Below are positions 5,661 to 52,683 of a stretch of 64,000 nucleotides of DNA, in pieces (positions within the stretch are counted from its first letter, which is position 1; every line of letters starts with the position of its first letter). The stretch spans positions 51,066,788 through 51,130,787 of the forward strand of contig CM120640.1 in assembly GCA_051362555.1 (NCBI GenBank), in the 5' to 3' direction. Below the pieces are notes generated by a model. The model had not been told where the DNA came from and made no database searches. It saw only the letters and a list, made by a program, of their open reading frames with translations. This DNA comes from Lingula anatina. Its lineage: Eukaryota > Animalia > Brachiopoda. Position numbers and translations under genes: made by a program.

Positions 5661-8123
5661 TCATTTTTGAATCATATCATAATTCCCTTCCTCAGGATCT
5701 TCATACACATCTGGATCTGCTCCTACAGTATAATAATCTTCAATTCCACCAACTACCTCTGCTTCATGGTATCCATCACCAGTACTATACATTAGGTCAG
5801 GGTCCTCTTCTTCACCACTGTTGGTTTGCAAGCGACCATAAGTAGCATCAACTGGTGGCTTTTTTCCCTTCCCAACCCTAATGTGGTCATACTCAACATC
5901 TTGAGCATGGTCACTGGAAACAACTGTCTTTTTACCTTGTGGAATCAGTACTGGGTTTGGTTTCTTTTTCACTGTCTTGTTAGTGTGCAATGCTGCTGGT
6001 GGTTGATAATGTTCCTCGTGAAAGTGATCATCAGTTTCTGCATGCCGTTTCCAGGCATTGTCTTGGATATCTTGTGGTTGGGAATATATTGTTCCTTCTT
6101 TATCTGGTTTTGGTTTCAGGGGGGGCTTTGGCTTTGGTTTGGGTTTGGGTTTGTTTTGTTGTTGAACTTTTAATTTGTCTTCTAATTCTCTGGCAAATCC
6201 TGTGGCCCCTTTACTACTGACCTTGTTATCTGATCTTGTGTACCTTCTGTCAGGAAGCTCAGGGGATGGGGATGTTGTAGAAATGGATGCAGTTCTTTTC
6301 TCAGCAGTTTGTTCTTTGATTTGTCTTAACCTGTCATTGATAAGCAAAAATATATCGTTTCCCTCCTTTGTAGCAAGTGAAAAAAGTCCTTCACCAGAGT
6401 TGCACTTTCGCCCTGCCTCAAACTGGAAGTTGGTTTTGCTGCGACCATACCGTCTGATAAATCTAAACGGCCAAATATACTCCACTCTGCCTGTGTGAAG
6501 ATTGACCATGGAAATGTTCATGGCATTTACATGTAAATCATAGTCACCTGTGAGTCTACAGCGCCTAGAAACTTCATTGTCAACTATTTTTATTCTAAAT
6601 ACCCCAGCTGAAAAAAGAAGAGAATATCAAATGAAAACAATGTCAACATAAAGTATACACACACGAAAAAAAAAACAAAAAATAAAACTTGTAACTTGTA
6701 GATCACGAGGTTATTTATATAATACACTATATATATATATATATGTATCTATCTATACTAGTACATGTAGAACTACATTGATTTTATATTATTCCCAACA
6801 AAATATGTGCCAAAAATAATGTGCTGGGATATGGTCAAGTGTTGCAAATATTTAATTTTATAAGAAGAATTTTTTTTCATTTCAACATTTCAATTCTACA
6901 GTTTGACCTGATCTACAAAAACTGGAATCACGAGCTGAAAGAGAAAAGTGTGGGGACTTTCAGGACTTTTCTTTAAGTACTTTTCAAATTAATAAGCCAA
7001 TTTCCTTCTTAAAAACTAGTCAATAACATTTTGCAAGAACATATGCGGTACAAATACTTACGATTTTCAGCACATGCATATAGTGCACTTTCATCAAAAT
7101 GAGCTTCATCAGAGTTGAGACTAGTCATGGATTCTCCTTTTTGCATTGTTTGCTGACAATTGGTATAAAGAACTCCTCGGGAAACACAATTCTCAATTGT
7201 TCCAACCCACTGACGTAGTTCCTCCTCGCTGTCTGTTGAGAAGAGTTTTGGTTTAACTGATGTGCTAAAGGTCACTTGAAATATAAGTTCTCTTCCACCT
7301 GTTGTCTGAGTCTGCTTTATATTCTTAATATCTGACAGAAAGATTGTGCTTTTTTTAAGCTCTGGTCCCTTCTTTTCCTGGTCCTCATAGAAGGATAACC
7401 TTGGTGAATCCACACTAGTGCCTGCTGCATAGAGAACACACCACCGTCTAACCCAGGTTTTTCCCTGAAATGTACACCATCTTTTTCGTGAATCACCAGT
7501 TGAAGTAGTCAGAGGCAACTCACAAGTCAGTCATAAAAATAGGTGAAAGGATGGTAGCTTATACGTACACCACACCTTAACCAGACATGAACATTTTTAT
7601 TATACCAGTAACTTCCTGATTACTATAAATTTACGACGTACATGCGATAAATTAGACATACGGCTTGATTCATTAACATACCAGTTTCCAAACAAGTCCA
7701 CATATCCATCACGGAATGAGATTGAATCGAAGAACAAAAATCACGCAATTAATAAATATATTTTAACGCCAAAGTTTAAAACTGCATCCTTTCAGCAACC
7801 GCAGGTTGGGACTAATTTTTAGATCTAGAAAAAGTTGATTTATGATTCATCGGTGATAGTATATCTTTGGTTGACCGAAGGTCAGGAATAGCATGCTATC
7901 TATAATGGCCTACTTTACCAATAATTTCCTTGCTGGTTCGACTGGGGTCGGGCATTGACGGCATCAGAACTAAATGCCCTAGTACATGTATACGTCTGCG
8001 AAATTAAGGAAGTCTCGAAAAGAGTCCCTAAAATATTTTAACATTTGGGACGAAAAATCAAAAACATACCTTAAGTGGTGCATTCAGCCAACAAAACACG
8101 TATCCTTCTTTAACAGCCTCCAC
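5661..8123 (-). CDS. Dok: Docking protein (Dok1/2/3-like): PH domain, IRS-type PTB domain, Pro/Tyr-rich tail; exons 8123-8070, 7464-7062, 6607-5661 (~467 aa)
   Basis: PH motif (AVKEGYV...KTWVRRWCVLY...EEELRQWV) and PTB motif (WPFRFIRRYGRSKTNFQFEAGRKCNSGEGLF). The tail has many Tyr-X-X-Pro/hydrophobic sites. Exon lengths 54+403+947 keep frame across GT-AG junctions. Confidence 0.92.
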
Positions 8124-17631: not shown

Positions 17632-20600
17632 CTAGTCTTTGCTTTGGAAAATATACAAATTGTTTGTAGCTGCTACTGCTATTACATTTTCTGATGGATG
17701 CCAGCCAGCATGCAAGATTTTCTTACTAAAGTCTAAAGAGTCCACACTTATTTCATCTTTCTTTCTTTTTCCACCTGAGCAAACTTTCCTAGGTTTTAAT
17801 ACTGTCCTTGGTTTCATATTTTCTCGAGATGCTTCCAAAGTTACATCCCTCTTACTCTCCCTATCAAACATGCGGAAGAAATTGTTGTAGGACCCAGTCA
17901 TGATGTGCCTAAAATAGCAATGAAGAAAATATATGAGAAACTGCAGCAATAATTAACATTATAGGACCTATTTTGGGCAGCAACCCATTGGCCATTTTAC
18001 ACTGATATCCAACTGTTTTATAAATGCAAGATTAATTTGATGGGATCAAAACGTATGTGGAATGAAAATTCAAAAAAAAAAAAATTGTTTAGGACATTAT
18101 GTTTGCATAATAAGAGTGGCATTGAAGCCACATTGGTTGCCAGTCCCGTTCTACAAAGCTCAGAGAGAAATTTTGTTTTCAGGCCAAACTACCACTTACT
18201 TAATCACAGATCGATTTCTACTTTTGTTGTGTTTGAATTATTTTCCTTCAAAAAATATCTGACAATGAAAGGTCTAAGGTTTGTGCAAGTTTGACAAACA
18301 TTTCATTTAAAAACAAGCAGAACAGAAGAGCAATTTTCAAAGCATTAAAACATTACCTGTCATCACCACTCCAAGCACACTCAAACTTGTCAAAGATGCA
18401 GTCATTTTCATACAGTGAGCACAGCTTACTACGAAGAAATTCATGTACAGGGTATGTTTCTATTGGCTTAGAGTCCATATTCAGATCCCAAACTTTGACA
18501 GATAAATAATCACGAGATATTAGGTATCTGCCACTATGACTAAATTTGACATCTGATATACTGGATATAATCTCTGAGAAGAAACTTCGGTTAGTTGGAT
18601 CCTCTGGCTCTTCAAATACTGCAATAGAAATACAGATATTGACCATACGAAAAATAACTATCTCTCAGAGAGAATAATGATAATCAGATCAATTTACAAT
18701 ATTGGATATTTAAATAAATTAACATCTTTGCAGGTAACTATCACCTAAAACTCTTTTTTTAATGCATGTAACATCAATGTCTGCAGGTAACGGGGCCTGT
18801 AATGTACTGTTCATCCATTCAGGCACGTTTACCCTACACTTCAATATGCCTGCCGCTATCATTATGTCATAACACAGCATAGTTAAGCCACACAAATGTC
18901 TTGACAGGCATGTCTTCAGGAATATATCAAGGCTTACCAAAGCAGTCCTTGAAAATCATACTCACATTTTGTATGTTGATCACAAAGTGCCCTGGACCTC
19001 ATGTCACATAACCTTATACTGCCCTTGCTACTACTATATACAAACACGTTACACATGCTTGGGTGGAATTCTGCTGCAGTTATCACTTCATTCAATTCTT
19101 CCATATTAGCTGGTTTAATATCAACAATGTCTAAAAATGCTGGTTAAAGAGTCAAACAAAATTTGCATCTTTTAATTATTCCATATTTTCTACAAAGATG
19201 TTTTTTTAATATAAATATTCTCCAAGTCTAATCTGCACATTGTCTACAAAAAAAAAGAATCATACAATCTAAAATGCAATAATCAAGGATACTAAAACTT
19301 TGGTCGGTAATCTCAAGGTGCCACAGATTAATCCTAAGGTCATCTGCAGACATATAAGTTTCCTGGTCACTGTTGACAGAAATGGAGTTAATATGGTAGG
19401 TGTGTGCATTAGCAAACACACGACGTGGACTAGCTTCAACCATCAATTCCATAGGTTTGAGAATTGGCACCCGCAGTGCTTTTACAGATGTAGGGTCTCG
19501 CAACATGCCAGTCTCATCCTTTGTGTTGAAACCTTCTGGTCGCTTGTCTCTCTCTGAAATCTTCCATAATTTGATTGTTTTATCTGAAACAAAAACAAGT
19601 AAAGGTTGTCTAAGAATATATTCAAACAGAAAAATGGACACAGTGTCTACCATTATTAAATACATCTGTTTGCAGGTGAAAGGACCTGCAAAGTACTGTC
19701 CATCCATTCAAGCACATTTACCCCACACTTCAATATGCCTGCTGTTATCATTATGCTATAACACAGCACAGTTACACCACACAAATGTCTTGACAAGCAT
19801 CCCCTTGCCAAGGCCCTTATAAAATAAAACAAATTGTTTATTTCTTTTAAATAGTTTCAGACACGCTCCTACCATTTGTTGAAAGCAAGAAATTGGCTGG
19901 ATTGGCTCTCCTTAACCATCTTATTTTGTTGATCTTTTCTTCAATTTCTAAACTCTTCAAGTAATCAAACTCTGGTTCATGACTCTGGAAAGTGCTATAC
20001 ACATTGTATTCCCCACGATGAGTCTGGTTGGCTTTGCCCTATGAAATGCAAAAAAAGCTTTTGTAGTGTTATTAGGGGACTACTGCATTTTAGACTGCAT
20101 TCAGCCTGAGCCAGACCAACTAAGAATGCAAACAGTCTAGCAATCTTTGACAGGCTGATTATATATTTAATTATACTGCAGCTCAATATATTAACTCTTG
20201 TCTGTGATGCTTTGAGGCCATTACTTGGTTTAACTTGTACTGTATGTGAATGGCAGATAAAAAGTAGCAGCAAGTCAAAAGTGAATAAAAGAATGTAGAA
20301 AGCAAACCCATTTAAGTCTTTAAATATCTGTTCAAAATTATCAAAGGCTAATAAATCTCAACTTTGAAATCAAAACATACATATATCAACGACTGGCTGA
20401 CTCCAACTACTGATTTGTCAGGAAGCATATCTTACAGTTGGCATAAAGTAATGCACATAAATAACTCTGGTAGCACAATCAATCATTTTATAAAAAAGAT
20501 CCCCAAATCTTAAAAGTTGTACTTATCCATTAATTGGAAATGTGCACCATTTCAAATAGCTACTCTATTTTATGCATAACCGAAGGAATAGTAGGCTTTT

Positions 20601-28724: not shown

Positions 28725-29077
28725 TGCACTACGACGTTACTAATGCTTTACCCGTATCGCCTAAACGTGAACCCCACCTACCGAGGATTCTTGCACGTTT
28801 TCCAATCACGTATAACGTCACGTAGAGCCATCAGTTTCGTTTTAGGTTCTCTTGGATGATTCACATTGTTATGATAAAGACACAAAGTTCAAATTAGGGT
28901 AGGGGGAGCAGTTGGCGTACGGATTCTCGATCATGTCCCCTTTTGAAAATGCCAATGATATGCAGATCGGCAGGTAGAACAAAACGTCACATGTTGTCAT
29001 GCGGGTACAAGCAAAGAATTCTTATGTACTTCCTTGCACTTTTTTAATTACAGTAAAGAGTTGTTGAAAACGTCGCA

Positions 29078-32000
29078 ATGGGTAACGAACTGAGTAGTCG
29101 GGAGCTTGGTAGTGATCTTGCCATGCTGGCACTGCTAAGAAGTTTGGAGGAGGCACGGATGGGACGGAGCAGTTCTGAACCTATAATGACACAGCATGGT
29201 TGGGACCCTGATGATTGTTCAGATAATATGGATGTGCTGGAAGATGGACTTAAGGTCAGGATATTCGAACTGGTTTTGTACTGACTGATTTGTTACTCTT
29301 TTTATGCACTCTTATCTGCTCGATCGGACTATCAATTCTTTTCAAATGTCTTCTCCTACACAATCATTTCAAATCTGATATGCATGATCTCGAGCAATGT
29401 TTCATTTAATCTAAAATATTTGGCCGAGTGAGAGTTTTAAAGTCTTAAAATTTAATCAGAATTATGTTATGTTTTACTGTAAGTGGCTTTAGAATGTGTA
29501 GTAGTTATGTGGCTTTTCCTAATATTGAGGCCTTTGATTAGTAATAAACATTCTAACCATCAGGCCATTTGGGACAATTTCTTATCAAGTTTCTTTAAGT
29601 ATAAATCTTTTGAGAGGTTCACTGAAGGACAATATTAGTCTACTTTTTCAATCGTTAAATGTCATTTTGTGATATCTAGAGGTATTTCTGCATAATTAAC
29701 CTCATAGCAGATATATACTTTGTTTTTGTCTTAGTTGAATTGCTGAAATTTGTAAAAAATTTGTAAAACTCTTTTACTATCCAATTTTCCTATCACTTTA
29801 TTTACTCTGCTTTTTTTTTCTTTTTTGATATCTATATATGTAAAGTCAAAAAGTTTTTTTACTAGCTTCTCTTTGTAAAAATTGATGGTAAAATTGATAC
29901 TCTTTCTCAAAACTCGGTATTGATCAATCTACCTTCAGGTTAGAAAAAAGGTTTCTAGAACTCTGTCACCCCTTTTACCAATCCCAGAGATGCGCACTGA
30001 CGCCGTTCGTGGTAAAAAGAGTTACAGGAACGGCACCCACATCTGGCGTATTCATTGGCCAAAGCAGCACCGCGGCTCTCACGCAATGGTGGGCGTGGCC
30101 TCCACCCAGGCCCCTTTAAAATGCATAGGCAAGTGAGACTTGACATTTAATATGGAATATTTTTTTCGAAATAATTTTTTATCAGTTTTTTCCTATTTTG
30201 CTGACTGATAAATGAAAATAAGGATTAAAATCGTGTTTTAATAACTTTAAATTAACTCTTTGATGTCATTGTGACATCAGTTCATAAATGGAATTCGCCA
30301 GAGTAGCAAACAAAAACACATCGCCTATTCTATGTCATACGACTCCCATTAAAAGAGATATTTTGGATCTCCACATTTTCCAAATTATCGTCTGTAAAAG
30401 GGTAATACGCTCCACAAAAGACCCTCATGTCAGTTGCTAGTCACAGTAATGGTCTTGTTACGCCTGGCCTCTTCGTGGCTGTTGCCAGCGCTCTCAAGCG
30501 GCAAGGCATTTCTTGGGGGTAGGTTTTTAGAGTTCAATCTGGAATAGCATTCCAGGCATCGGTCTAAAATTGTCCAATCTGGTCCAGTTTTGTTGTAGGA
30601 CATGTAGGCAGTTGATTGGTGAGTAATGGTCTACCGAAATATTGTCTATGTGGTTCAAATGTGGCGATTTTGATGACCAGGGTAGCTGCTCATTCCCTTG
30701 GTTCTTTAAGTTATCTGCCATTAAAAGTGCTCTGTGTGAACCTGCAACCTCATCGTGCAACCTAGAATTGTTCCTAAGGTGCCCCCTATCAAATGATAGT
30801 CAAGTGGTTCCGAGATTATTCCTTTATTTGATCTGGTTCAGGTTTTCGTCGATGACTACCATTGGTGTTTTGGCACCAATGTGGAATGTACTCCAAATAC
30901 TGACGCTGTCAACCACCCTTGTCACTTTAGACCCGGCATATGCTTCGTCGTAGGCCTCTTCTGGATATCTGTAAACTCTGTTTTGACTAATTGGGCGGTA
31001 CAGGTGAAATCTGACCTCAATAAAGAAAGCCACGCAGTTTCAGTGTTCTACCCAGAATCGTTCATGGCCCCCAATTCATTAGAGAAACAGACGACGATGT
31101 TTTGCTGTATACAGTGGGTACTTCGGAGGTCATTTGGTGTTCTTACCTGCTAAAACCAGTTTGGTGTTCGCTAAGGGCCTTGAAAAACGCATTTTAGTGG
31201 CAATTTACCCCTCGTTCTGAACGGACTGTGTTTTTTGTTTAGTTGCAGCAGCGTATCCCGAAAGACAGTGGGTCTTGTATCCTGTAGGTAAAATTTTGAT
31301 ACATTGGGGTGACCTCTGTGTAGGTACATCAGTCTGGGCATTACTCTATAAAACTGTGGGGACCGTTCCGTTTGGCGCTATGATCTGTCTGGTTATGTCT
31401 GTCTTTTTCGCGCCATTCTGCCTTAGATTAACAGATTTGTAATGCACTACTTGACTCATCTTATGCACTGCAAAACTGACCGCTTGCATGCAAAATGTCA
31501 AATTCTTCTATGCAGTAGTTGCCGAAATATGGATACTTTTTTGACAGAACCAAGCTTTGCCTAAGCCAAGCTTTGATCAGCCCAAAGGAACACTACCCAA
31601 TTAAATCACTGCAAATTACATAATGTAGCAGCGCAACAGGCATGAAAGTCAGTTAATTGGTAGTGACACACCTGACTGCACACTTTTACATTCACAAATC
31701 TTATATGAGATCGGAGTTTTTTGAAAAAAATAACTTATTTTTACCTAGGTATACCTTCGAAACTGAAATATTCCATATTAAATGTCAAGTCTGTATATAT
31801 CAGCACGTCCAGGATACTGGGTAACAACAATTGGGCATGTGATCAAAATTTCAACATGGCGCATATTTTGTGAGCACGCTCTCTGGTTAGAATATGTATC
31901 GTATTTTGCTTTATATTCATAAATTTTGGAAAACAACACTAAACATACGAAAATTATCAGGAAAGAGTACACCTAACTTCGCAGAGTTCGAAAAGCACGC

Positions 32001-35000
32001 TGCGATCTTGAATCGGCGGTTAAACAGCGATGACATGAAGTCGATTTTCGTGAGTTACACGTCAAAAACTGGGAACCGGATTTTACTAATTTAATTGGTC
32101 TCATTAATATTTATGTGACGGGGTCATTACGTCATCAGTGGAAATTTTCACAATCAACGCTAGGTCCTTTGGCTAAATCTGAACGGGGAACCGAAACTTC
32201 ACGATAGCTGTGGCTTCGCTGTCGTGAGTGTCTGAAGGAAACGAAACATTGGGCTATAACATGTGTGATTACACGCTCAGATAACACATTGTTATTTTAT
32301 GAAAAGCAGACTGTATTTCAGGTATTTAAATTCCAAAATTGAACGATTTGTATAGTTCACGTGTATGGGAGATACTCTGTACTGAAGTTGAAAACGGAAA
32401 CGATGGTAATGCACAAAAACCCGTTTTCTTCAACCATCAAAATTCTTTAGTGTGTGAACCGTAAATGATCCTTGAGATAACCAAAAAACATGACAGTACT
32501 ATTCTGAGAGTTTTCTTTTCCAAAGTGTACAGCTGCAAAACAGACTGGTATGTCTGTGTCCCAGATTTTTAAGCACTGTTTTTATTTAGTGTCATTTTCG
32601 GCCAAGAATTAAAAAGTTTAAAATACACAGCAATGTTTGGAAACACAAAATTGTTTGTTATAGTAAAACAAATCCATCCCCTTTCACATGAAAGCACACC
32701 CATTGTAATCCAACACATGGTAATATTTTGACAGGCATTCAAAGATGATAACCCATTGTTGTTATCCAGTATCGTGGACGTCCAGATAAGTAAAAGCACA
32801 TCGTATTCGACAGAAATGTTATGGACTGTACTGATTATTCATATGACATAAGTGTGTGATTCACAGAAAGACAAATAGCTAAACACGCAAGTTCTGGTAT
32901 GCTATGCCCTACTATTTTTTTGCTCTGGCATATAATATAACAGTTTGACGTGAATTTTGAATAAAATAATCCCATTTATACTTCGATTCAGGTTTCACAC
33001 ACTTGATTGGTTCCAACGACCAGTCTCTAGGCTGGGACATCGCACGGAATCTTTTGATCTATAACGACTGTACTATCAGACGTTATCCAGACGGTAAAAT
33101 GCCTGGATTCGAAGCCCCAGAGGACATTACAGTTATTCTGAACATGGATACTGGTGTGCTGGGATTTAAAGGTGGAGGTGAAAACTACGGCGTAGCTCTG
33201 ACTGGACTGAGGAGCATCAATCGACCGTTGTCCCCTGCCATAAGTGCCACTAGAGACGGGGCTGAGATTGGAATCCACTACTTAGGTGGCACAGGTGATA
33301 TTAAAAATTATATAACATTATATTCTGTAATTAGAACATATATAATTATCAAAATTAAGCATCAAGTTTTTAATATTTATCTTATTGCTGCTTAGATTTT
33401 TGTCATCGATAATATCTTCAATCGTTTACAAATTACAATCCCAACGTTGCTCTATTTGTTGAAATTTGGAATTTGAAAAAACTCTTATTTAGATTCTGGT
33501 CCAACTGTTGGCCCTACACCAATCACAAGTCCGCGACCAGCATCTGCTGCAGGGGCATTCACCTTCCATAGTAAAGTGCACGGCAGTGCCGTCAAGTTTT
33601 TGAACAACTACAGAACAGCCGCACGAGAAGAGTAAGTGTATTCTAAGATAATATTGTTCAAAAATCAAACTTTATTCCACATATTAGAATTTTGAAAAAT
33701 GTGGTGCATTCATAACTGCAAATGTCTGTCGCAGTGTTGAAGCCAAATCCATCCGCCCAAGCTGTATTGAACAAACGCGTTTCGTCTTACTATTGACCTA
33801 CGTATGGCTCTGCTTTACTCTAAGTCACCCTACCTACCCTTTCCAACACCTACCCCTACCAGAACGAACCGATAGGATAACTTTAAAATATCTATACAAT
33901 ATTGCATGTTCTTAAGTAAGCATACTAAGGACTTGTTTTTTATTTATTTTTTCATCCATTGTTTTGAACTTTACATTCACCTTCACTGAATGCCTTAGAT
34001 ACGTTTAAAAAATTTATTTAAACACTTTAATGTTTTCAAGTCCCCTCAACAATGACAAGAACGCAGTGGTGTTCACTTCTCGGCCCTTGGAAACAGAAGA
34101 ACTCTTTGAAATCCACATAGACAAGAGAATCAAGGGTTCTGATAAACCTGGTTCCGTGGAAATAGGCGTTACCACTGTGAACCCTCAGCAGCTGAGTTCT
34201 GTTCCAGCCACCATGACTGACTGCAAAGTTGGTCAGACCTGGATGTACAGTGGAGCTGAAATGTTGTTGAATTCACTCAAAGTGGCGAACATGCCCAAAG
34301 ACATCTATGAACTTCAGGTATCGATACACTCGTAGGTGGATCTGGGGGTTGGTGAGAGGCCAAAAATGAAGTGACCTCCCGATCCTTATGTGAATCCTCC
34401 AGTGTGCACTCTTAGGTTATGGGGAGACGGAAATAAAATGTCTTTTTTTTACCGAAAACTAAAAAAATTAATTTTCATTTCTTAAAAAAAACTGCAGCAA
34501 TTGCATTAGTCCCAGAATAGTACATGGCAGACAAGTTAAGCAGTAAATCTTGATATCTGTTTGTGAAAGCATTAATTGGCATTTTGAAAATTCTTATTCC
34601 TTCATTTAGACCGAAATTAAGAATTAGCAAAAGATTGGTCTTGGTTTGAACATAGAGTAATGGAATCTAGCAGTTAACATGGCCTTAAGCCTGACTTTTT
34701 CTTGAATACGTTCACTTTTTCACTTAGTCAACTGGGAAGTTATCTAAACTGGGAGTGAAACGTGATGCTCAAGGGCGACTGGATATATTTGTCAATGGTG
34801 AATACATTGGCACTATTAACGACAGGTTCCCCACCACTATCTACGGAGTTGTGGATATCTACATGCAAACCGTACAAGTCAGCATCACAAGTATGTATTC
34901 TTCAAGTTTTTGTATGATTTCTGTCGCCATTGCATTTCTGTCGCCATCGCCAATGCATAAGTTATCACTGACATGTGTGATAGGTTGAAAAGTAATAACC

Positions 35001-38000
35001 CTTCTACATATCTCTGTTTTTAGCTTAGTTTACCACGAGACTGTGCTTTGCAAATTGATAACCAATCTATATATTATTCTGAGCGATCTGAGTCTCTTTC
35101 ATTTGATAAAGGCCCTAAGGTAGAAGCACCAATAGAAAAGGAAGAAGAACCTAGTGGGCAAACTCAAGAGGCTGCAAAGTCTACCTCTCCAACCTCTCCA
35201 CCGCCTCCCCCAATCACATTCCGCAAAACTTGTGGAAAAAATGTAGAAATGTCAAGTGACCAGAAAACTGCAACCAGACGAAAGTAGGTTTAGAATGATA
35301 CGTGCTTAGCCTTTTGATATTTCAAGAATGGAGAAATATGGGCCCTATGTATTAACTAAATAATTGAATTAAAATAACATTGGTATTCTTTATTTCATTC
35401 CTGGTATGGACATGACTACATTTTAAAACAGCGCTGTGATCACTATGATGCAGTAAAGAATTATATAGGCCTTTAGTCTTTGTAGTTTGTGCAGTTATTC
35501 AACAATTAAATTACTACTCTCTTTCGTTTAAAACTTCCAGTTATATGACCGACTGCGATAATGGGATAGTCCTTAGCTCTAGACCGCTGCAATCCGGCGA
35601 AATGTTCGAGATCAGAGTGGATAAGACCATCAGCAAGTGGGACCACGAAGGCCTCAAAATTGGTCTTGTTGATTTACATTCTGGTTTTGAGATCCCCCGC
35701 ACGCTACCTGGTCAAATAGCTGAAGTCACGTGGTCGTGGGTCGGAGACGAGGTGTTTCACGACAGAAGAGTAGAGAAAAAATTGAACATGAATCTAAACA
35801 GAGTCAAGGTAAACTTATCGATTTAAGTACAGTATTTTGAGAAAACAGCGCATTCGGTTAAACACATGAATACTCTGAAATTAGCTTTGAATGACAACTT
35901 TTTGATTGTTGTGTTTGACGTTATTTCCGTCTTTTAATTTGTTTTGAAACAGAATGGAGATAGGGTCGGTGTGATGAGGGCAAGCGATAACACCGTTCAC
36001 TTTTTCTACAACGGTCAAGATTTCGGGGCGGCTGCAGATAGAATCCCTGAGAAAGTATTTGCAATCGTAGATGTCCATGGTTGCACTTTTGAAGTGTCCT
36101 TAAACAGTGAGTTAAATTTACTATTTGATGTTCATTACACCAATTTTTATTTTGTGTATTGACACTCTAGGTGACTGTAAATATTTTTGGAACTTTACCT
36201 GTGTATGCCATGGCTGTCAAAAATGTTCGTCTTAAGCGCCATATCACATTCCATTTTACTTATAATTTACTGAAATATTTTTTGGAAGATGCAGTTAAAC
36301 GCCAGTCATTATAAGCGACTATTTTCACAGAAGTTAACTCAACTTTTAATAAGATAATTATTTCTTCTTTAATAATAATCTTAATAATTTCTTTATTCGA
36401 TAATTAGATACATCATTGTAAAATGAGCACTTCGTTTTTTTAAAGTTTATTTCATTATTTTTAGTGCCCGACACAGAAATGGAAACCAAACAAACGGCGC
36501 CTGGGCCTAATCCCAACTCCGAAGTTAACACCGCTTTGATGAAAATGAAGCAAACAGTGGAGTTACTGAAGATCAAGAATGAAGCATCAATAAAGAAAGT
36601 GAAACAGATGGCGCAAGAAAATTTATTGGAACTTTATCGGAGCCACCAGGACCCGTTGCTTCGCAAGGCGATGGGTGAAAAGTTCACAGAGATGCAGGGG
36701 GCAACACACATCGTCGACTATATAAAGTTCCTGCGTGAGTGCGGCCTAGAAGTAGATTACATCCAGGAATGCTATAGTACACTGCGAAAAATTTGCGTTT
36801 GGTACAGCGATGATTCCCTGAAGTTCGCTCGCGCTCTTGGGGAAACAGATTTATTAGCAATTATGGTATCCGAGCTACAGAAATACAAGAACAAATCTTA
36901 CGAAACTGACGAGGTAACGCTTTACTGGGTATTAATGTATACTTAAAGTGATAATAACTCTTCATATGAGATTTATATTTCACAATAAAAGCATTGTGAA
37001 TAACTCACAGAAATATAATATATTCTGTTTTGCCACAAAAATGGCAGTTCTGATATCTGAGGTGGTCTTCAGACCACGTGACCTCCACTGACGGCTGTAC
37101 TCTGTTATAATCTCTTAAGAGATTTTAACAAAAAAAAAACTTTTTAGAAAAAAAACAGGGACTATTTTGAATCTAAAAATGGATTCATTAACCATTAGTA
37201 AGTATGGGAAAATTGTTGTTTACTCCAGGAAAATTCATTTTTTGGCCAAAACAAAGAGTTATTATCCCTTTAATATACTTTGTAACATCACACAAGTGAT
37301 CGTCATATAAATGTACATGAAAGATTTTTGTTGAAACCCGTAACTATAGTCTTCATAGTAATTTTAGCATAACCATATCCTTTATTGCATTTTTAGAAAT
37401 TGCTGGACGTGGTGAAAACTAATCTTATTCTCCTACATAACTGCGCCAAAGTTACTGAAAACCGCGGTGTCATAAGGAGACTGCAAGTTATCGACGCCAT
37501 CTTGCCCTACCGTAATAGCAAGATTAAGGAATTGAGCACCCACGCCCTTATGGCCCTCTCCTACATGGTTGCTATTGATGAACACCATTACATTCAGGCA
37601 GACGAAAATTCCATCGCTTTCATCTTACAAATCCTGGAAGAGGCATTCAATAACAAAACTACCCACATGAGCGAAACTGGTTATCATGTAGATGAAGTCC
37701 TGGTCGGACTGGCCAACCTTGCCAAGAACAAAGGGAACCGAATAAATGTTGTTAAAAAACAAGGTGTTAACACATTTGTGAAAATCATGAAACTTGGCCG
37801 ACCCAGTGAGCAAGAGTGCGCGGCGATGGCGTTGTTGGAAATGGTGGACGACACAACGGTGCAGCACATTGCCGCAACACCAGGTTTACATGGGGTTCTT
37901 GCTACTATGAAAAACAGCCCAGTGGAGGCAGTCCGACAGGCCTCAGAAAGACTGTTGCTCAAGTTGCCTTCGCAGGACTCTTTTGTCCAGATGATGCCAG

Positions 38001-38246
38001 GTGATTGAAACATATTTAATGACTTTTAATAATGTGAATGTGTTGATGGAGTTCATTTATTTGCTTATTATGAAAAGTGTATTACAAGAGAAGCAGACAT
38101 TATTTCTGATCGAGATCAAGAATTCTGTTATTTATTTAAAGAAATACATTTCAGATATGCCGAAACCAACTGCACCTAAAAGAAGAAAGTGTGACTATAA
38201 AGAGATATGCAACGCTTACATGAAAACCCTTAACTTAAATGGCAAG

Positions 38247-38317
<71 letters not shown>

Positions 38318-39828
38318 CGCTCGCGCGAAATGTAATCCGTTACAGATATCTTATGAACTTTTCTCCCATAGATGCGTTTTTCGACCACGAATTTGACCGG
38401 TGCTACTGCAGCGTCTGTCACACAGACCGTGGAGATGACTTGTATTATACCAGGGGAGACCCTCCCAAAGATTACGGTATTCCTGCTGGCTGGTGTAGAT
38501 ACGCTTTGAGGTGAGAAATAAACAGCGTTTAATTTGATAGGTGTGTAGAGTTAAAACAACAGCATGGGAATAGCATAACAAAAAAGATGTCTTGTTTTTC
38601 CTGTCGTTGGTTAATGCCTATAAGGTTGTCAAATAGAAAGCACATCCAGTTTTCTTCGCACCGTTTTCGTGCCAGATAATGGGGCTTGATTTCCGGATTG
38701 CTGTCATCATACTTTTGCCATCTGCATGTTAACATTTACTTTAATTTTTTTTCTCTACAAAGTTTGCCTGCAAAAGCCAAAGCCATGAATGTTTTAGAAG
38801 CCTGGCACAGAGCTTACCATGGGACCAGGAGCACTGCGGTTGCTAAAATATTACAAGTGGGAGAACTTTTGATGCCAGGTTCGTTTTGATTGAATATATT
38901 GTGTTCAAATTTTATGAATCACTCTTTAATACAACAAAAAAGCAAATTTTGTCTTTTACAGGTTATTAAATACACCTCCGTATTGTTTTTTGTTTTTTTT
39001 GTTTTTTTTTGTTGTTGCTTTGATGGCCTCGTCTTATTAGGGAAAAATGAATTTGAAACAACGCTACAGGTGTAAAACAAGAATATGAAAAAGATGAATC
39101 AACATAAACCCCTTCATTTACCACATTTCTTAGTAGAAAAAGGGGTACACTTAAAATCTATTTACTCATCTGCGCTATGAAATTGCAGTTTATTTTGTCC
39201 CCTTAAAAACGTAAAATTACATCTTGACTTTCTTATAGGTGACACTGCTCTTGGCGGAGAAAAAATAAGTGTGTGCAAAGGGCATTTCACAGAGGAAAGG
39301 AAGCCAGAAGGATTCAACATCAAGAAAATCTTTGTATCGCCCAGCATCCGATATGCAGGACATAATGCTTATGCTATGCCGCACAAGTAAGGCTTCCGTC
39401 CCGACCTTTGATATTTTTTACATCTAAAGACAGATTTTTGATGGCTTCGTACATTAAAAGTCAAATAAAGAAAGGGAGTTCAATTTTATTCATTGTAAAT
39501 TTTCTAAGAAAAGAAATTTTTGTTTTCAATCATCTGTCCTTAAGAAGTACTGGTAGAAGGTAGTTGATCAGTCAATGTATTTTGAAGGAATATGTGCTTT
39601 TTTTACAGGTACAAGGATGCTACAACAGAAAAGAACTACGTAGCTCGCGTTGCATTCCAAATCTGCATTCGCCCGGATAGTTACGTTGTAGGTGACCAAA
39701 CCATTGGAGCCCTGAGCCAGATAGACCCAAAATTTGATAACCAGGAAATAGAATGGGCGACAGAGGAGAGAGGTAGCACTGTCCTCTATGGCCTGCTAGT
39801 GAAGTTGGAAGAGGAAGTCAGTGCTTGA
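29078..39828 (+). CDS. Multidomain protein: N-myristoylation motif, SPSB/Gustavus-type SPRY, 2 Neuralized (NHR) domains, ARM-like repeats, NEURL4-type Zn-finger and ADP-ribosyltransferase domain; 15 exons (29078-29254, 29939-30128, 32992-33294, 33493-33631, 34041-34317, 34728-34891, 35111-35284, 35541-35808, 35953-36106, 36465-36913, 37397-38000, 38154-38241, 38372-38510, 38763-38878, 39239-39386) plus terminal exon 39609-39828
   Basis: N-terminus MGNELSS. SPRY: HGWDPDDCS...TDAVRGKKSY..GTHIWRIHWP..HRGSHAMVGV...LIGSNDQSLGWDI. NHR: AVVFTSRPL...FEI...IGVT and GIVLSSRPLQSGEMFEIRVD...GDRVGVMR. ARM: LLHNCAK...ALMALSY...VLVGLANLAKN. ART: CYCSVCH...PAGWCRYAL...AYHGT...FVSPSIRYA...FQICIRPDSY...EIEW...LYGLLVK. 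Confidence 0.9.
30440..31420 (-). mobile_element. Decayed Tc1-family (DD34E-like) transposase in intron 2 of the SPRY-NHR-ART gene
   Basis: Fragments F..EVRFHL...NRVYR, SVSIW, and HDEVAGSHRA...QLPWSSKSPHLNHIDNI (compare WPxxSPDLNPIEN), interrupted by in-frame stops. Confidence 0.85.
31803..32784. mobile_element. Non-autonomous TIR DNA element, longer copy of the 4020-4436 family
   Basis: TIRs cacgtccaggatactgggtaacaacaat / attgttgttatccagtatcgtggacgt. About 200 bp at each end is homologous to 4020-4436. Confidence 0.8.
38248..38312. repeat. (CT)n(CA)n compound microsatellite
   Basis: Read directly from the sequence. Confidence 0.95.
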
Positions 39829-41104
39829 ATAAAGATGCAATGTGCAAGAGCAATATGGTAGCGCCACCTTGTTCAGGATTGGTTTGAGAACAGTTCACAA
39901 CAGCAATACTAGAACTTTATCAACATGCTTCAGTGTTTTTGTTTAATAAAGCGGCTTCAAACTAGCAAATGTGGTAAACTAGCCTGCAATTTTTGTCTTT
40001 GCTTTAAAAGTTACAGCTGAAAATGTTACCTTAAAGGTTGCAGCTAAAAAGGTTACATTTGGCGTATCAGTTTATGCCGTGAAATTTTATTAATCACGCT
40101 TAGAGTTGCACACAAATTAATAGGAGCATTAAAGATGTGTGGCCTCGTGAAAATATCTGTATTGGCACACACGTATTAACTCATACTCATGTTATGTGTA
40201 ATTCAAGAAATTTTTATTGTGTTATTCAAAACTTCAAATGCTCTCTCAATTTTTAATTATATGAAAGCTATGAAAAATGATGATTGTTTCGTTGTTTTTA
40301 TTCATGAATTAATACAAATGAATTTCAAACCCTTTTTATAAAACTGCGGTGCCCGCCATATATCGCCTTGTAAGATATCGTTGAAAAAATTCTAAGTGTA
40401 AAGGTATCTCATCTGGGATTTTCCCGCCAATTTTCCTGACCAATCAGAGGCCTGGATAGAGGTATAATAAAACCCAATAGTCTGGAAATAACCAAAAACG
40501 AATCTTTTTATCAAAGTTATCTAAAGTATATTTCTTTGCATGCGGTTAGCTTTTCTGACGATAAATGAAACAAATTTGCAGGCTAGTGTGTTTTTAAACA
40601 TGATATTCATCAATTATATATTTGTATATACAGAAATTAAGACGCCACGTTTAGCAAGGGAACTCGGTTGTTGGCACTTGGACTGGTTGTTTTCGTGTTA
40701 GACGTTTGACTTTCTTGTATACCGCTATGCACGTATGTTTAAGAAAACGGTCATATCTGTATAATTTGTTTTACGGGTTGAAGAGCACCATTTGGAATAT
40801 GGAATGTTAACACATTAACAAAGCAATTTTAGGACATTAGTGGTAGTGATCTTCTGATTATTTATTGTAAAAAACATCTTTAACATTAAAATATATTTGC
40901 AACCGAGAGGTTGATGTCTTATTAATATGTGCACTTGTTGTAAGGTTTACAATGTATATTCAAACGAATAATGGGTTGAAAAAAGGCAAAGATTTGTACT
41001 TGAAAAGTTTGAACACAAATAACACTCAAATCTGTCTTTCCAAAACAATGTAATAAATAAATAAATAAATAAATGCATCCTCAACACAATTACCAATAAT
41101 GTGG

Positions 41105-44100
41105 TCAACCGATAATGTTTGTTTGTTTGTAGCAACTTCCAGTACACTGACGTAAGCTTGCCGGGCTCTGTAAAGATTGACAGAAGACGTCTTGTGTAAT
41201 CTCATTTGTCGTCATGTCTACGCACATAACTTGCCTTGTCTGCACTGAAAGCTGACCACAACTTGCTGGACACTGAAATATAATAACATAATGTCAACTT
41301 GAGCTTTAAAAAAACACATATTTCCTTCAAAATACATTGACTGATCTACTGCCTTCTACCAAAAACCACACACGGTGCTTGCCTAGACGATGCAGCCCCA
41401 GTGCACTGTGTCAGTCTGTTCAGTTACAGAACTGCCGGTCGCACATTGGAAAATCTTTAGAAAAAGTTGCGTGCGCTGCGATAACATCGACTTCATAACA
41501 CCCTAAGTTTTGCAAAATTTACGGTAAGTTAAGACACTTCTAGATGAAAAAAATCCGTATGCTATACAGTTTGAAGGGATGTTTTATGGTAACAGAGACA
41601 AATATCAGTATCTATGCCGAATTGTATCGATTGTTGCAATAGATGATCAAATATATCACATATTCTTGAATCGAACTAGACGAAATACAAGGTCACGTCA
41701 GGGGGCTCAGGATAATAAAGAACGGCAATCTAGTGCATGCTTTGTACACTTTGGTATGCCCAAATAAAAAATGCCAAAAACCTTTCGAATACAAGTGGAT
41801 ATATGATTTATGAGTGTAAGAATTTCATAAAAGTTATAAGATTTCATTTTGATGGAGCATTTCCCGTCAGCAATTTGGCCTTTCACCTCAGAAGCCAAAA
41901 GATAGAGTCATCACGTAGACCTACCTGAAACCAGTGCCCAGTGACCCATCTATACGGACAGGTGGACACACCACTATTGACTGACCCTCCCACTTGAGGA
42001 CACTGGTCGTTTGAAACCCTGACAGGAATACCCGACCTTTGACTAACGCAAGTCACAGGGCACACTAGTTGTCGCGTCCCGCAAGACCGGGTGCATTGTT
42101 TGATATCCACAGGTGTCCAACTGTAAAGAACAAGAAATGTAGCACCTGAGGTTACATTACCAAATCCGATTCTTTGCAATTGTGCTGTATGAATACCATA
42201 AATGTACATTTCTTAATAGGAGGTGGAATTTATAAAAGGCTGTCAAAATACAGTTTTTAAAGTTTAAATAGTTCTGTTGATGAGCTTCGTTCTTAACTCC
42301 TTTAAAAAACTCTTCTGTCCTTATTTTATGGTAAAATATCTCTTAGTTTTTAAGTGGAACTTACTTTGCTGGACATGCCTGCGTATTGCAGGAAAGTGAT
42401 GTCGAAGTGGGCCTGTCTTGGGCGTTGCACAAAACATTGTCGACAATTGATCCGCCTGGGGCGACCACGCACAATGCCTTTACTAGCTGCATTCCTGACA
42501 AATAATAGAACTATTTTTTTTAGGAAATTTAAATCTTCCTGTGACCTTATGTGCTCAAGTAATTTTATATTTTGTGTCAACAGTCAGGTCAAATATCACA
42601 TTCTAACCTGGAAAAAAGTACACCTGTCTGTGTAACTAATTTTGCTCTTTGTTGATCAGAGCCCTAGCGGGGAGAGGTTCAAACATCCACTTTACAGCAG
42701 AAGACCAACCATATGATTTCCTCAAATTAAAGACGACCATTTAATTTTGAAGTTTAACAAACTTCGACAATGGAAATAATATTCAAATCATGAAATCCCG
42801 AGAAAAAAATTAAGGCCCCAGAACATCCAATAAAAAGTCCAAAAATTTTCCGTTAAGATCCCACACCCCATTAAATTCCCGGTAATTCCTGGGTTTACTA
42901 TTTATAAGTTTCATCAATTAAACTGCTATCAAACATCTTGATCCTATAAGGAACCAAAGTAAAAAGTGTTGCTACTCGTAGCTAAGCAAGCAAAGATATA
43001 AAGGGCGTGTCGACCGCCCTTACCTCCTCCGCATGTCTGCGTGCATCCAGTTATATAATGGAGGCTCCACCTGTAGCGCTGTACACTGCCAACCGCTGCT
43101 GGTGCGACGTGATTGGTTGGCAAGTAGTATTCATAAGTGATAACAGGATCCACACCATTATACTGCGTGCTGTCATACTCTTGCTTCACCTTTGAGGTAG
43201 ATAAAACAATATCTATAATAAATATAATTATTGCAATTTGAAGACGACTTCTGAAATGATGTTGTCGACACAGGTCCTCTTTTACACTGTCCATTTGATG
43301 ATTGGTAATCAAAATAAATTTTCAAAAAGCGAAAAGGAAATCCAAGTTTAATAAAATGGGATAGTACATGAATGAATGTACATGATTTTTTTAAAGCAAG
43401 GAGAGAATAGTAAATACCACTATTTATAGGAACTTACCGAAAAACTGACAGTGATATTGTTAGGGATTGACTTGATTGAAAGATACTCGCTGTCACTCAA
43501 ACCACCTTTATACTGCACGTGTACTCCCTCGCTGTCATACAGACGTGATTTTCCCCTACCAGAGTGAGGTCCAAGCAACCAGCGGCCGTTCACCCGAACC
43601 CCAATATGAGTGTAGGCATTGCTGCTGACTATCTTAATGCTGGTCGCACCCTCAGTTAGTGTTAGAAACGTTACATGCTCTAGGAATAAATAAAAAAGGA
43701 TAAGATAGTAGTTAAGGATGCATTTGATACATCCAGCCTGCTGTGGACCTTTTACACCAATACCACTCCGGTAGATACAAGTAAAATAGCTCCCCTTTGT
43801 CAAGAAAAAAAAATCATACAACTTACTTTGCATTTCATAGATGAGTGACGTTTGCAAGCTGAAAAAAGAAGCTTTTACATGTACTAAGTAACTAATATTC
43901 CTTTTAAAATGTAGTCTTTAAAGGTCATGGAAAAGTTTGAAAAATCACTTTTCACACTCAGCAATTACCTTGAAATTTCCCGGAAGTCTGCTTCCCAGAA
44001 AACTTTTTACAAGAATTCCCTGTACCTCCACATATTCCGCAAACGTCAAAAAAAGTGCCAGAATTTAGTTCTCCATCACAGCCGAATTTCTAAATAAAAA

Positions 44101-47676: not shown

Positions 47677-49910
47677 TTTGCTAGAAATCTTTAGGTGTTA
47701 CTAACGTGGCTTCACTACATTTATTTGAATAAAGACTCTTGAATGTCTGCATGTCTTTAAGTAGCTAAACAATTTAATTAAAGAAGTAAGAGATTATATT
47801 TAATCTTAGCGGATATGGGTTAGGCAATATGCTTTCTATTTTAAACTACAAATTCTTGCGTTAGGTAGACCTTTCACTGCTTTGTACACAAAACGTGCCT
47901 TTTACATGGAAACTATCTCTATATATCTGACGCAAACATAGATTATCTCCCTGTTTAGCTGCAACATATTTCATAACACAGATAGTGTTGAATTTTTTCT
48001 GACGAAAGGTCAGTGCTTTCATTTTGAATCTTTACCCACGATCGGATAAAAAATAAATAGATATATAGAAAATTTTTAGAAAGGGAGAACAAAGCTTTTA
48101 CGTTTAAGACCAAACATTTAAATATACCTTCACCCGAAAAAAAGTACATAGAAATCCTCTAAATTGTTATATCAAGAGAAAGAATTAGCCGTCTCCGATG
48201 ATATGCTGTATACCTTACTTCGATTGACTGCAAGGGACTTGTCTTCTATTAAATCAATAATAAGAATATAATAAAATTATTTAGAGTCTAAAATCCCTAA
48301 AAATTTATTCTGTAGACATTACAACTAAAATACAAGGTTGAAAGGATCATTTTAGATTTAAAAGTAATTGTATTAAAAGTAAAGAGAACATGGAACAAGG
48401 GGTTACATTAATCAACTCTTGAAGTCACATGGGCATGGATGACCGTGGCAGTGGTAGTGTCGGTTAGTTGTTTTTAACATGATACATGCAGGTTTATTTA
48501 ACATTGGCTATCTGCTTATCCATGGTTAAGGTAATTGATTAAACAAAGTATTGGTATTGAAGTCAAGATCAACTTTTAGTCTAAAGTTCGTTTGTAAAAC
48601 CGGCCCTTGTAATTTTTTTTTTTATAAAGTGTATATTTATTTACATTTTTTATCCTTAATATGAAGACAATTCTCAATCCTTTAAAAACTAAGCTTTATA
48701 GCAAGTTCTAGCAAATGATAAGCCGTTTGCGCTGTAATGTAACCAAATAAAACTGCAGTCTTGTATAAGAAAACGATGTCTTTTCTACATACATTGCTCA
48801 TTTTATTTTCTGAAAAAGACAGTGACGGATTTATTCTTAGAATAAAGTTCACTTAAATAGTATATAAGTTTGCGGTGTCTTTATTTCTTAACAGTAGTAT
48901 CAGATGGGAGAAATATATTTCTATTCCTATAGTACTGTTCGTAATACGGTGTAGTTCAACGTCCCTTTACAGACTTTTGACATGCTTTTGGCCTGCCCCC
49001 TCCCAATTGACGGCTACACCCAAGCAGTCATACAGCTCAATTATAATATTGTTGAACGAACTTCCGAGGTTGACAAAAAAGATAAGTCATATTTTGTTTG
49101 CTTGGGCGTTTCCTCACGGTTTTGCTACCAGCGTATAATTTTGTGGCTGGCGGGCCAGCCTTCCCACATACCTAAAATCACCTAACGCCATTGTTTGGTA
49201 ACAGTAGGTGTATTTGGGGTGTGTGTTGCTTATGAGGCCGGAACAAAATAAAAGGCTTTTCATTGAAAATGGGGAAAATTGCAAAAAAACAACCTCAGGG
49301 GTGTCCCATCCGACACATTAAGGCATATCTAAGATGATTCGAATAAAAGAAAACCCACGGGTTATTGTAAGAGCTTGAAAGCTTTTGTTGAAAAAAAAAA
49401 TGACTCGAACCTATTATTGGGCCTAAAGGGAGAAAAATGCAACCACTGGGTCGTCTACAGAGGCTCAGAGGTCTAGAAAACCAATGGGGTCAGGTGTCAG
49501 CACTCGAGTAATAAAAAACTTTGAAAGAGAGGGTGATTCAGATAATTTCCTCCTTCCTGTGGTAAGAACATCAGAACACTTGTTAAAACTGTTGTACAAT
49601 GTACGTGCGTTCAGAACAGGTTTAACAGGAAAATGGAACTGACGTTAATGTGCCTTAAAATCTGCCTTTCTGTTACAATCTGCCTTTCTATTACAAATAA
49701 TATAAGCACCTATAAGTATCTAATATGTGTAAAACATTACATTATCGCTGATCCCTGGTAACTGTTGAATTAAAATCATAGATATTTGAACAATTTGTAA
49801 TGAGAACAGTCACTTGGGAGGGTTTTTTTAATGGGCACGATGAACACGTGTTCCTTTTCTATTACATGTCAAAAGGCTTTAGGGAGCGTAAAATGTAACC
49901 GTTTGCGTCA

Positions 49911-52545
49911 TAGTCCGGTGGCTTAAGGAAAAAATCGTGACACGGCGGATAAAAGCAGTAAATTTTGCATGTGGGTACCTTTTGACATACTAAATCAAAT
50001 TAGAGCCGTAGCCCACGGAAAAAAATTACCGTTTGGCCAAAAAATCCAAAATGGCCGCCAATTTATGGAATTCTATAGAAATGTGTACTTATCTATGTTG
50101 ATTTTTATCAAATAAATTATTTTCTCAGAGTTTTCCACACCCTTATTACCCATGTTATTCATATATGTCAGATAGCAAACAAGTTCCCTTGGACTTTTTA
50201 AAAAAATCCAAGATGGCTGTTATATGCCATAGAAACAGCCATAGGAATACTAGTGCACAACTAATGCCAGCTAGAAAGATACGTTGTCCACTATCAAATT
50301 AAGTCTGTTTCTCAGATTTTTGTTACCAGCATAATATGTTTGTGGTGAGCAACTAAGAAGTGTTCTTGGGCATTTCGGAAAATCCGAGATGGCTGCCATG
50401 TGCCACAGGAATTCTAGTATACGGGGGATTCAACTAATGGCAACTGGAAAGATTAATTTTCCACTATCAAATTAAGTTTGTTTCTGGGTGTTTTCCACAT
50501 CCTTTCCACCCACACAATATGTATGTGGTGAGTGACTAACATGTATTCCTGGGCATTTTGAGAAAATCCAAGATGGCCGCCATATGTCATAGGAATACTT
50601 CTAGTGTTACAAAGGGTTGGAACTAATGCCAGCTAATTCACTACAAATTCAGTTTATTTATATTTTAGTGTTTTACACATAATTATTACACTGTGATACA
50701 TATCTAGCAGGTGATAAATGTGCACATTTGATCATTTTGAGAAAATCCAAGATGGCCGTCATTGGCCATAGGAATATTACTGGAATTGCAACTGCACATC
50801 CATGGCTTTTCATCTACTACCAGGGTGAAATTGTGTTTGCTTATCAAGTTTTGCCCATCCTTATTAGTCCTATGATATATATCTGGTGGGTAAATAGTGT
50901 ACATCCTTGGATATTCTGATAAATGCTGCTAGGGAGGCATATGGTTTATTATACATTTACATTACCATGGGTTTGTTTTAAAAATAATTTATGTTTTTCA
51001 TTCCATTTATTATTACTCCTATGATGTATACCTGGTCTGTAGCCTGTGTGTATCTTTGGGTATTCTGGAAAAAATTCAAGATGTCTGCCTTTTGTCATTA
51101 GAATATATATAACACATAATCAAATAATGCCAGAGATACAAAGAGTACAATTTAAATGCAGTTAACTTGAGATCATTTTTAAATGTTTTTCATATCCTAT
51201 TTATCCTCATGAAAGACTCCCTGTGTGTAGAAAGTGTATGTATCCTTGAACATTATTCGGAGAAAACCCAAGATAGCTGCCAGTTGTCATAGGAATATAT
51301 CATTCAAATGCAAATAGGTGTCAATTAATGGAACAGTTCAGGCATTGATTCCAACATGAAATAAAGCCGTTTGATGTTCAAACATGTTGACATCCTTATT
51401 AACCTTACTCTATATAAGTCTGGTGTGTAGCAAGTGTGCATCTTGCGCATTTGAGAAAATTCAAGATTGCTGCAATTCACAATAGGAATAGTACATTCAA
51501 CTACTGCCAGAGAGACATTGGGTTAAACGTAAAATTAATTTTGTTTCTCGGTATTTCCCACATTCTTTTTGGACTTTGAGATATCTATCCGGTGGGTAAC
51601 AAGTGTATACCCTTAAGTATTTTGACAAAATATCATGATTACCCTCATTTGCCTTAGAAGTGCCTATAAAATCTAATGCACCAGTTTTCCTATGGGGAAA
51701 AGAAGGCCATCTTGGATTTCCCCAAAATGATAAAATATGGACATTAATTACCTAACAGATATGTATCATGGGATAATAATACTAAAAAAAACAGAATAAC
51801 AACTGAATTCAGCTTCATTTTATATGTAAAGCTATCTTCTGCAGGTATTAACTGAACCCCACCTTCTATGGCTAATGGCAGCCATTTTGTTTTGTTTTCT
51901 TTTCAAAAAGGATACACATAACATTCTCATCAAATATATGTTATGTGAATTAAAAAGATGTGGAAAATACTCAGAAACAAACCTAATTTATCAATAAATA
52001 TTATATCTCCATGGCAGAAGAAGCCCTATGTGTATACTAGTATTCCTTTGATATGGCGGCCATATTGGATTTTTCTCGAAATGCCTGAGAATAAAGGTTA
52101 ATTACTCACCACAAATATATTATTTGTGTAATAAGAAACAATTAGATAGTGGGCAATGCATCTTCCTAGTTGGCATTAGTTAATTGAAAACCTGTGTACA
52201 AGATCTAGTATTCCTATGCCATATGGCGGCCATCTTGGATTTTTTCAAGAAGTCCAAGGACACTACTTTGTTACCTGACACATATAAATAATATGGGTAA
52301 TAAGGATGTGGAAAACATTGAGAAAATACTTAATTTGATAAAAATCAACATAGGTATGTATATATTTCTACAGAATTTCACAAATTGGCGGCCATTTTGG
52401 CTTTTTTGGCCAAACGGTAAATTTTTTCCGTGGGCTACGGCTCTAATTTGATTTAGTATGTCAAAAGGTACCCACATGCAAAATTTGGTGCTTTTATCCG
52501 CCGTGTCACGATTTGGCCATTTTTTTGCCCTAAGCAACCGGACTA
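49911..52545. mobile_element. 2.6-kb non-autonomous foldback DNA transposon (Academ-like) with long TIRs and internal ~170-190 bp repeats
   Basis: Ends TAGTCCGGT(G/T)GCTTA...TAAGCAACCGGACTA are flanked by a TCA direct repeat. Over 300 bp of terminal sequence is an inverted match. A recurring AAAATCCAAGATGGC(C/T)GCC motif reverses orientation near 51650-51700. No ORF. Confidence 0.88.
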
Positions 52546-52683
52546 TCACAGAGTTTAAGAGATATAAAAAATCAGTGCTGCCATGTGTCATCACAGGGTC
52601 AGGTTAGACATAAAAAGCCCTCTTCATAATTTGCATTAATTTTTGCGGAAATAATTTGTTTTTACTTGGGTTTATGACAAATT

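Follow-up and report, generated by a model that had tools for sequence, protein, structure and literature searches.

The 64,000-nucleotide stretch of Lingula anatina DNA that we analysed (assembly GCA_051362555.1, contig CM120640.1, positions 51,066,788 to 51,130,787 of the forward strand; hereafter the window, to which all coordinates refer) contains a gene that joins a predicted myristoylation signal, a SPRY domain, two NHR (Neuralized) domains, an armadillo-repeat (ARM) block and a C-terminal NEURL4-type ADP-ribosyltransferase (ART) domain in a single protein. This gene belongs to an apparently undescribed, phylum-spanning and ARM-coupled branch of the NEURL4-type ARTs. Its ARM block is homologous to that of the invertebrate ARM-TIR proteins, and our trees indicate that TIR, kinase and ART effectors have been exchanged on this one scaffold. 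Within the searchable literature, we found neither SPRY-NHR-ARM-ART proteins described nor an ARM common to TIR, ART and kinase proteins; earlier domain surveys or their supplements may list such architectures.

The gene model consists of 16 exons on the + strand, running from the ATG at 29078 to the TGA at 39828 with no internal stop codon, and it encodes 1,198 or 1,201 aa depending on the use of donor 33285 or 33294 for exon 3. The RefSeq protein XP_013383120 (P0002; Lingula anatina, 1,201 aa), annotated as 'neuralized-like protein 4', has the same domain layout as the window gene and agrees with the model at every junction; it is ∼99% identical to it, the differences being 11 substitutions and the 3-residue longer exon 3 donor. 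A second RefSeq protein, XP_013418417 (P0001, 994 aa), matches the model at 976 of 977 residues and begins downstream of SPRY, its first 17 residues not being found in the window. Four of the nine listed raw-read runs with a Lingula anatina label were aligned to the window, and the RNA reads were found to span at least 5 of the 15 introns (33631>34041, 34890>35112, 36913>37397, 38000>38155 and 39386>39609). The second of these joints links NHR1 to NHR2, and the fourth links ARM to ART. The remaining 10 introns are based on the RefSeq model and on homology. The open 16-exon frame, the junctions shared with P0002 and the RNA joints NHR1-NHR2 and ARM-ART together bear out the single gene that had been proposed in a preliminary description of the window, and every sequence motif quoted there was found in the model.

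Two introns of the model, 30129-32991 and 38242-38371, are of the GC-AG type. Both GC donors have a strong downstream consensus (AG/GCAAGT and TG/GCAAGT) and are absent from the RNA joints listed. No in-frame GT donor was found within 45 bases of either, and the GT alternatives were rejected as out of frame. The two donors of exon 3 lie 9 bases apart and are both in frame; the second, which RefSeq uses, adds G-G-T. Exons 4-6, and likewise exons 7-9, are skippable in frame.

The C-terminal domain shares 53% identity with its counterpart in the Lingula six-NHR NEURL4 (P0010; 97% cover, E 8e-79). The motifs YHGT and QEIEW are present and conserved in an alignment of 27 family rows, 24 of which keep the His, the Tyr and the last Glu. 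The NEURL4-type module recognised earlier at this position was thus confirmed, with its catalytic His and Glu kept. In human NEURL4, HGS and ELEW mutants are reported to be inactive and the isolated domain is active in vitro (PMC8932523). The middle triad position reads F-V-S in the window gene versus L-L-S listed for the human protein (PMC7955679). Furthermore, a language model scored the domain at 0.95 against a cluster of which 89% is Pfam PARP. On the basis of the NEURL4 homology, this score and a weak Pfam PARP match, the domain was assigned as a probable ART and is predicted to have NAD-using ADP-ribosyltransferase activity. The NEURL4 ART family itself has already been described (PMC3417536, PMC10789625, PMC7955679, PMC8003356). 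The ART core is preceded by a Cys/His lead-in (C-x6-C ... C-x-C-x2-C-H) that is likely metal-binding.

To model the structure we used the 27-row alignment, which gave a mean predicted local distance difference test (pLDDT) score of 76.6, with ARM and ART mostly at 80-95; a single-sequence fold had a mean pLDDT of 37 and was not used. Residues 424-746 of P0001 were confidently helical (pLDDT mostly 80-95) and matched the armadillo fold at Z 20-22, which substantiated the earlier reading of this region as ARM-like helical repeats. The ARM block was then used as a query, and the best 150 of 283 representatives (E up to 0.001) were taken, leaving 148 new ones after removal of 2. The best non-self match was an amphioxus ARM-TIR protein (1.8e-41). 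Among the 148 relatives listed, TIR_2 was present in 64 (5 of them partial and under the cut-off), a NEURL4-type ART in 11 and a protein kinase in 5; the named ARM-TIR members represent amphioxus, a tunicate, a bryozoan and abalone. The likeness to invertebrate ARM-TIR proteins that had been suggested previously therefore proved to be homology of the ARM block. In the TIR partners, the Glu of the C-x-x-E helix, which we take to be the NADase Glu, is kept in 54 of 56 filled rows. Whether it is an ART, a TIR or a kinase, the effector starts no more than a few tens of residues after ARM.

A quick ARM tree of 89 rows (64 TIR, 20 ART and 5 kinase) placed 18 NHR-type ARM-ART rows in a cluster with support 97. 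After this tree, 39 rows were picked for a careful, unrooted tree, comprising 15 of the 20 ART, 4 of the 5 kinase and 20 of the 64 TIR rows. Here the 13 NHR-type ARM-ART rows formed one group (support 99/98), which splits into Lingula and Lamellibrachia versus the hemichordates and P0006. The amphioxus ARM-ART rows joined the ARM-kinase rows (100/98), and a single clade of all ART-bearing ARMs was rejected by the approximately unbiased test (p-AU 0.0073). Since the ART-bearing ARMs do not form one clade, the effector has changed at least twice on the ARM scaffold, among TIR, kinase and ART, in trees that, being unrooted, set no order for these changes.

The homologous ARM also occurs in other domain settings (P0041, P0045, P0047, P0059, P0083, P0050, P0089 and P0119), joined either to MIB-SH3 repeats and a kinase (the two named ones being from amphioxus), or to a B-box, or to a CARD; in Ptychodera P0050, an SH2 domain is inserted inside ARM. 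Amphioxus MIB-SH3-ARM-ART and -kinase proteins (P0020, P0036, P0041 and P0059, all uncharacterised records) share the homologous ARM with the window gene, and P0020 and P0036 also share the homologous ART, but they carry other N-terminal domains and their ARMs are a separate group in the tree. The invertebrate ARM-TIR proteins likewise have a homologous ARM directly before the effector and frequently an MG start, whereas the window gene has ART in place of TIR(-SAM), carries SPRY and NHR in front and gave no TIR match. ARM-TIR proteins are listed in mollusc surveys (PMC4346834, PMC9334734, PMC6836662), among them immune surveys of oyster and Aplysia (PMC4346834, PMC9334734), and the function of the Aplysia proteins is given as unknown (PMC9334734). 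The part of a TIR survey available to us names ARM for SARM1 only (PMC7075850).

At the other end of the protein, an in-frame TAA at 29054-29056 lies 24 bases 5′ of the ATG, so that MGNELSS is likely to be the protein start. Going by the consensus for this modification, MGNELSS is a predicted myristoylation signal. An MG start was found in 15 of 22 ARM-ART and 30 of 64 ARM-TIR proteins, and in three further ARM-ART models the aligned MG is internal. The SPRY domain was matched by Pfam at 1.3e-13, its closest structures being SPSB2 and GUSTAVUS (3e-36 to 2e-30), and the two NHR domains were matched by Pfam at 5.6e-58. No SOCS box was found by Pfam at E up to 1, and the idea that exon 3 might continue by read-through into such a box was rejected on this ground. 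Pfam and structure matches thus agree with the preliminary description of an SPSB/Gustavus-type SPRY that is followed by two NHR domains and not by a SOCS box.

The window gene shares its SPRY subfamily (E 3e-36) and an R-G-[ST]-H loop, here R-G-S-H, with SPSB1/2/4 and GUSTAVUS, but differs from them in having no SOCS box and an altered peptide pocket. Specifically, the Tyr120/Val206/Trp207/Gly208 pocket for D/E-I/L-N-N-N peptides is not kept: Tyr120 of SPSB2 is replaced by Phe, and Val206-Trp207-Gly208 by Thr-Arg/Lys-Asp. The SPSB2 substitutions Y120F and V206A greatly reduce the binding of iNOS, with changes at these pocket positions lowering or abolishing it (PMC2911665), and the pocket residues are also given in a second study (PMC11203437). 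Because these residues are changed, the SPRY domain likely has a ligand other than the D/E-I/L-N-N-N motif.

Each of the four domain junctions coincides with a phase-1 intron, a phase shared by 7 of the 15 introns (chance 0.026). The NHR1 and NHR2 cassettes both have the intron phases 1-2-0-1; one of their introns is at an identical aligned position, and the other is 3 columns apart. This gene structure would fit a history in which 1-1 modules were shuffled as exons and an NHR cassette of three exons was duplicated.

Paralogs were counted from protein searches, and a search with the ART region gave 29 proteins. The SPRY-NHR-ARM-ART layout was found in a second Lingula protein (P0005), in the annelid tube worm Lamellibrachia (P0008, P0009, P0013 and P0027), in the acorn worms Glandiceps (P0011) and Ptychodera (P0012 and P0033), which are hemichordates, and in record P0006 (1,019 aa, its contigs not exceeding 3.7 kb). 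P0033 also starts with MGNELS. All these relatives have one NHR, and the doubled NHR has so far been found in the window gene only. NHR-ARM-ART proteins that lack SPRY occur in Ptychodera, Glandiceps and Saccoglossus, and SPRY and ART are found in Dimorphilus P0007 together with an ARM that is matched weakly (8e-05). With at least five proteins in Ptychodera, four in Glandiceps and several in Lamellibrachia, and with gains or losses of SPRY or NHR, both copy number and architecture vary strongly. In amphioxus, the homologous ART is fused to LRR-ZU5, GT4-conflict or MIB-SH3-ARM. A homolog search restricted to proteins of 1,846-5,000 aa found nothing, and an Atlas search for ARM and ART together gave no usable match. 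The one-NHR layout is present in the brachiopod paralog, the annelid and two hemichordates, and we therefore reject the earlier view that the architecture is lineage-specific.

As side observations, P0007 apparently consists of two tandem SPRY-(ARM)-ART units, the second ART being degenerate. The amphioxus proteins P0003, P0004 and P0015-P0030 form an expansion of NEURL4-type ART fusions (with PIDD-like LRR-ZU5, ZU5, GT4-conflict or MIB-SH3-ARM), in which the ART is present twice in P0003 and twice in P0004.

The window gene shares with NEURL4 (human, and Lingula P0010) the NHR domains and, at the C terminus, the Cys/His lead-in followed by an ART that bears HG[ST] and E[IL]EW, but its family has one or two NHR versus six, and adds the MG start, SPRY and ARM. 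Because Lingula has P0010 as a separate gene, with six NHR and no ARM, the canonical NEURL4 slot is filled, and identity of the window gene with canonical NEURL4 was rejected, in agreement with the preliminary description. In an unrooted ART tree, the canonical Lingula NEURL4 falls among the ARM-ART domains, at a position that carries no starred support.

We give roughly even chances to a reading in which the protein is a myristoylated, membrane-anchored ART whose SPRY and NHR domains pick its partners and whose ARM controls when the enzyme fires. Myristoylation of Gly2 would anchor the protein on the membrane, and SPRY and NHR would bind peptide ligands, the SPRY ligand not being the motif of the SPSB proteins. 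ARM would pass a binding or clustering signal on to the ART next to it, as it would do to the TIR or kinase of the relatives, and ART would ADP-ribosylate proteins with NAD+ as substrate, an activity reported for human NEURL4. The setting would be innate-immune or stress signalling. Here, the immune and sensing roles are deduced by analogy from the accompanying domains, and an immune role is suggested because copy number and architecture are variable and because SPRY-like domains are found linked to effectors in animal immunity (PMC8195603).

SARM1 offers a parallel, since it also has an ARM followed by an NAD-using domain, and its ARM autoinhibits the enzyme via a nicotinamide mononucleotide (NMN)/NAD site (PMC8494770). 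The window gene differs in having no SAM and an ART in place of TIR, and SARM1-type autoinhibition would apply to it by analogy only.

Several observations weigh against such a gated immune effector. Pfam matched neither SAM nor TIR in the protein. SARM1 came only at rank 33 among the ARM fold matches (Z 17.0, root-mean-square deviation 10.2) and was not among the best 60 of 206 ARM sequence matches, so that the ARM of the window gene is no nearer to SARM1 than to generic armadillo proteins. As for the enzyme, the Pfam PARP match is weak (E 0.042) and covers a single exon, the His is lost or ART truncated in 3 of the 27 aligned rows, and no ART was present among the matches listed in whole-model fold searches, ARM and NHR matches filling these lists, or among the 59 matches of a mixed-profile PDB search. 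As for the transcript, the RNA joints listed include neither SPRY-NHR1 nor NHR2-ARM, and RNA depth was low, at ∼0.1-6 reads across exon bins in two of the four runs and close to zero in the remaining two. Finally, relatives are known from few phyla, in word-limited searches, and the neighbouring genes (DOK-like, WD40 and ADAMTS-like) give no hint of an immune cluster.

The strongest competitor, which we regard as possible but less probable, holds that ARM is a passive docking scaffold that puts a constitutively active ART near its substrates, or near ARM-TIR and ARM-kinase relatives at the membrane, with no gating. The fold is indeed generic, its top matches being peptide-binding scaffolds such as APC, Vac8 and p120, and three unrelated effector folds on one ARM are easier to accommodate with a docking module than with a fold-specific inhibitor. 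The in vitro activity of the isolated human NEURL4 domain also agrees with constitutive action. However, the short and fixed spacing between ARM and effector across ART, TIR and kinase members fits coupling, and NAD-consuming enzymes are usually kept off until triggered (PMC8494770).

It appears unlikely to us that the gene, as a derived paralog of NEURL4, serves in cell biology or development (at an organelle, at the centrosome or in Notch-type trafficking) and has no part in immunity or stress. NHR and ART are NEURL4's own parts, the Lingula NEURL4 lies, with no starred support, among the ARM-ART domains in the ART tree, mitochondria and centrosomes are reported sites of human NEURL4, and the family is kept in both protostomes and deuterostomes. 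On the other hand, its strongly variable copy number and architecture, including the amphioxus LRR-ZU5 and GT4-conflict fusions, are typical of conflict genes (PMC8195603). We give a very low probability to the SPRY exons being a separate or alternative transcript, or to ART being a non-catalytic relic, despite the SPRY-less P0001, the SPRY-NHR1 joint missing from the RNA joints listed and the missing direct fold match for ART among the matches listed, given that P0002 joins SPRY to NHR1, that only an intron of 198-207 bases containing no AATAAA separates them, that paralogs of three phyla have the same domain order and that the catalytic His and Glu are conserved.

More speculatively than the membrane-anchored ART itself, we propose that marine invertebrates may possess an undescribed kit in which a myristoylated ARM serves as a universal SARM1-like switch, outputs (TIR NADase, NEURL4-type ART or kinase) are swapped and inputs (SPRY, NHR or MIB-SH3) are added via phase-1 shuffling. 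The window gene would then be an ART branch inherited from the protostome-deuterostome ancestor, and we hold this wider picture to be tentative. In databases the family is concealed behind the name 'neuralized-like protein 4' or behind 'SPRY domain-containing SOCS box protein 2'. The shared scaffold connects two poorly understood groups, the invertebrate ARM-TIR proteins and the NEURL4-type ARTs; the family offers a direct test case for whether ARM is able, in proteins other than SARM1, to gate unrelated NAD-consuming enzymes, and it makes natural variants available for the study of the little-characterised NEURL4 enzyme domain.

Table 1. Exons and predicted sites of the SPRY-NHR-ARM-ART gene in the window.
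Feature	Position	Strand	Content
Exon 1	29078..29254	+	Start codon, MGNELSS (predicted myristoylation), amphipathic-looking helix, SPRY start
Exon 2	29939..30128	+	SPRY (RGSH loop); GC donor at end
Exon 3	32992..33294	+	SPSB-type SPRY end; two in-frame donors; no SOCS box after
Exons 4-6	33493-33631, 34041-34317, 34728-34890	+	NHR1, phase 1-1 three-exon cassette
Exons 7-9	35112-35283, 35541-35808, 35953-36106	+	Linker and NHR2
Exons 10-11	36465-36913, 37397-38000	+	ARM block, ∼325 aa
Exons 12-13	38155-38241, 38372-38510	+	Cys/His-rich lead-in, NEURL4-type module; GC-AG intron between the exons
Exons 14-16	38763-38878, 39239-39386, 39609-39828	+	NEURL4-type ART core
ART site	38818-38820	+	His codon
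ART site	39331-39354	+	FVSPSIRY
ART site	39745-39756	+	EIEW
Stop codon	39826-39828	+	

Outside the exons, intron 10 contains a high-copy interspersed element (36943-37273) with an RNA depth of up to ∼890 and strand-switching joints, which suggests internal inverted repeats of the kind seen in miniature inverted-repeat transposable elements. Several repeated elements lie under divergent reads in intron 2 (30160-32800), and parts of them recur at 4022-4433. Three neighbouring features are on the - strand. PH and IRS-type PTB exons with a Tyr-rich tail at 5664-7530 represent a DOK-like adaptor gene, and a WD40 exon at 19231-19707 presumably resembles a PP2A B55 regulatory subunit. At ∼41000-43917, exons of the ADAMTS spacer and thrombospondin-like types form an ADAMTS-like gene that is convergent with the SPRY-NHR-ARM-ART gene. 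Lastly, a degenerate inverted repeat of ∼870 bases with 73% identity and internal tandem repeats is located at 49907-52549.

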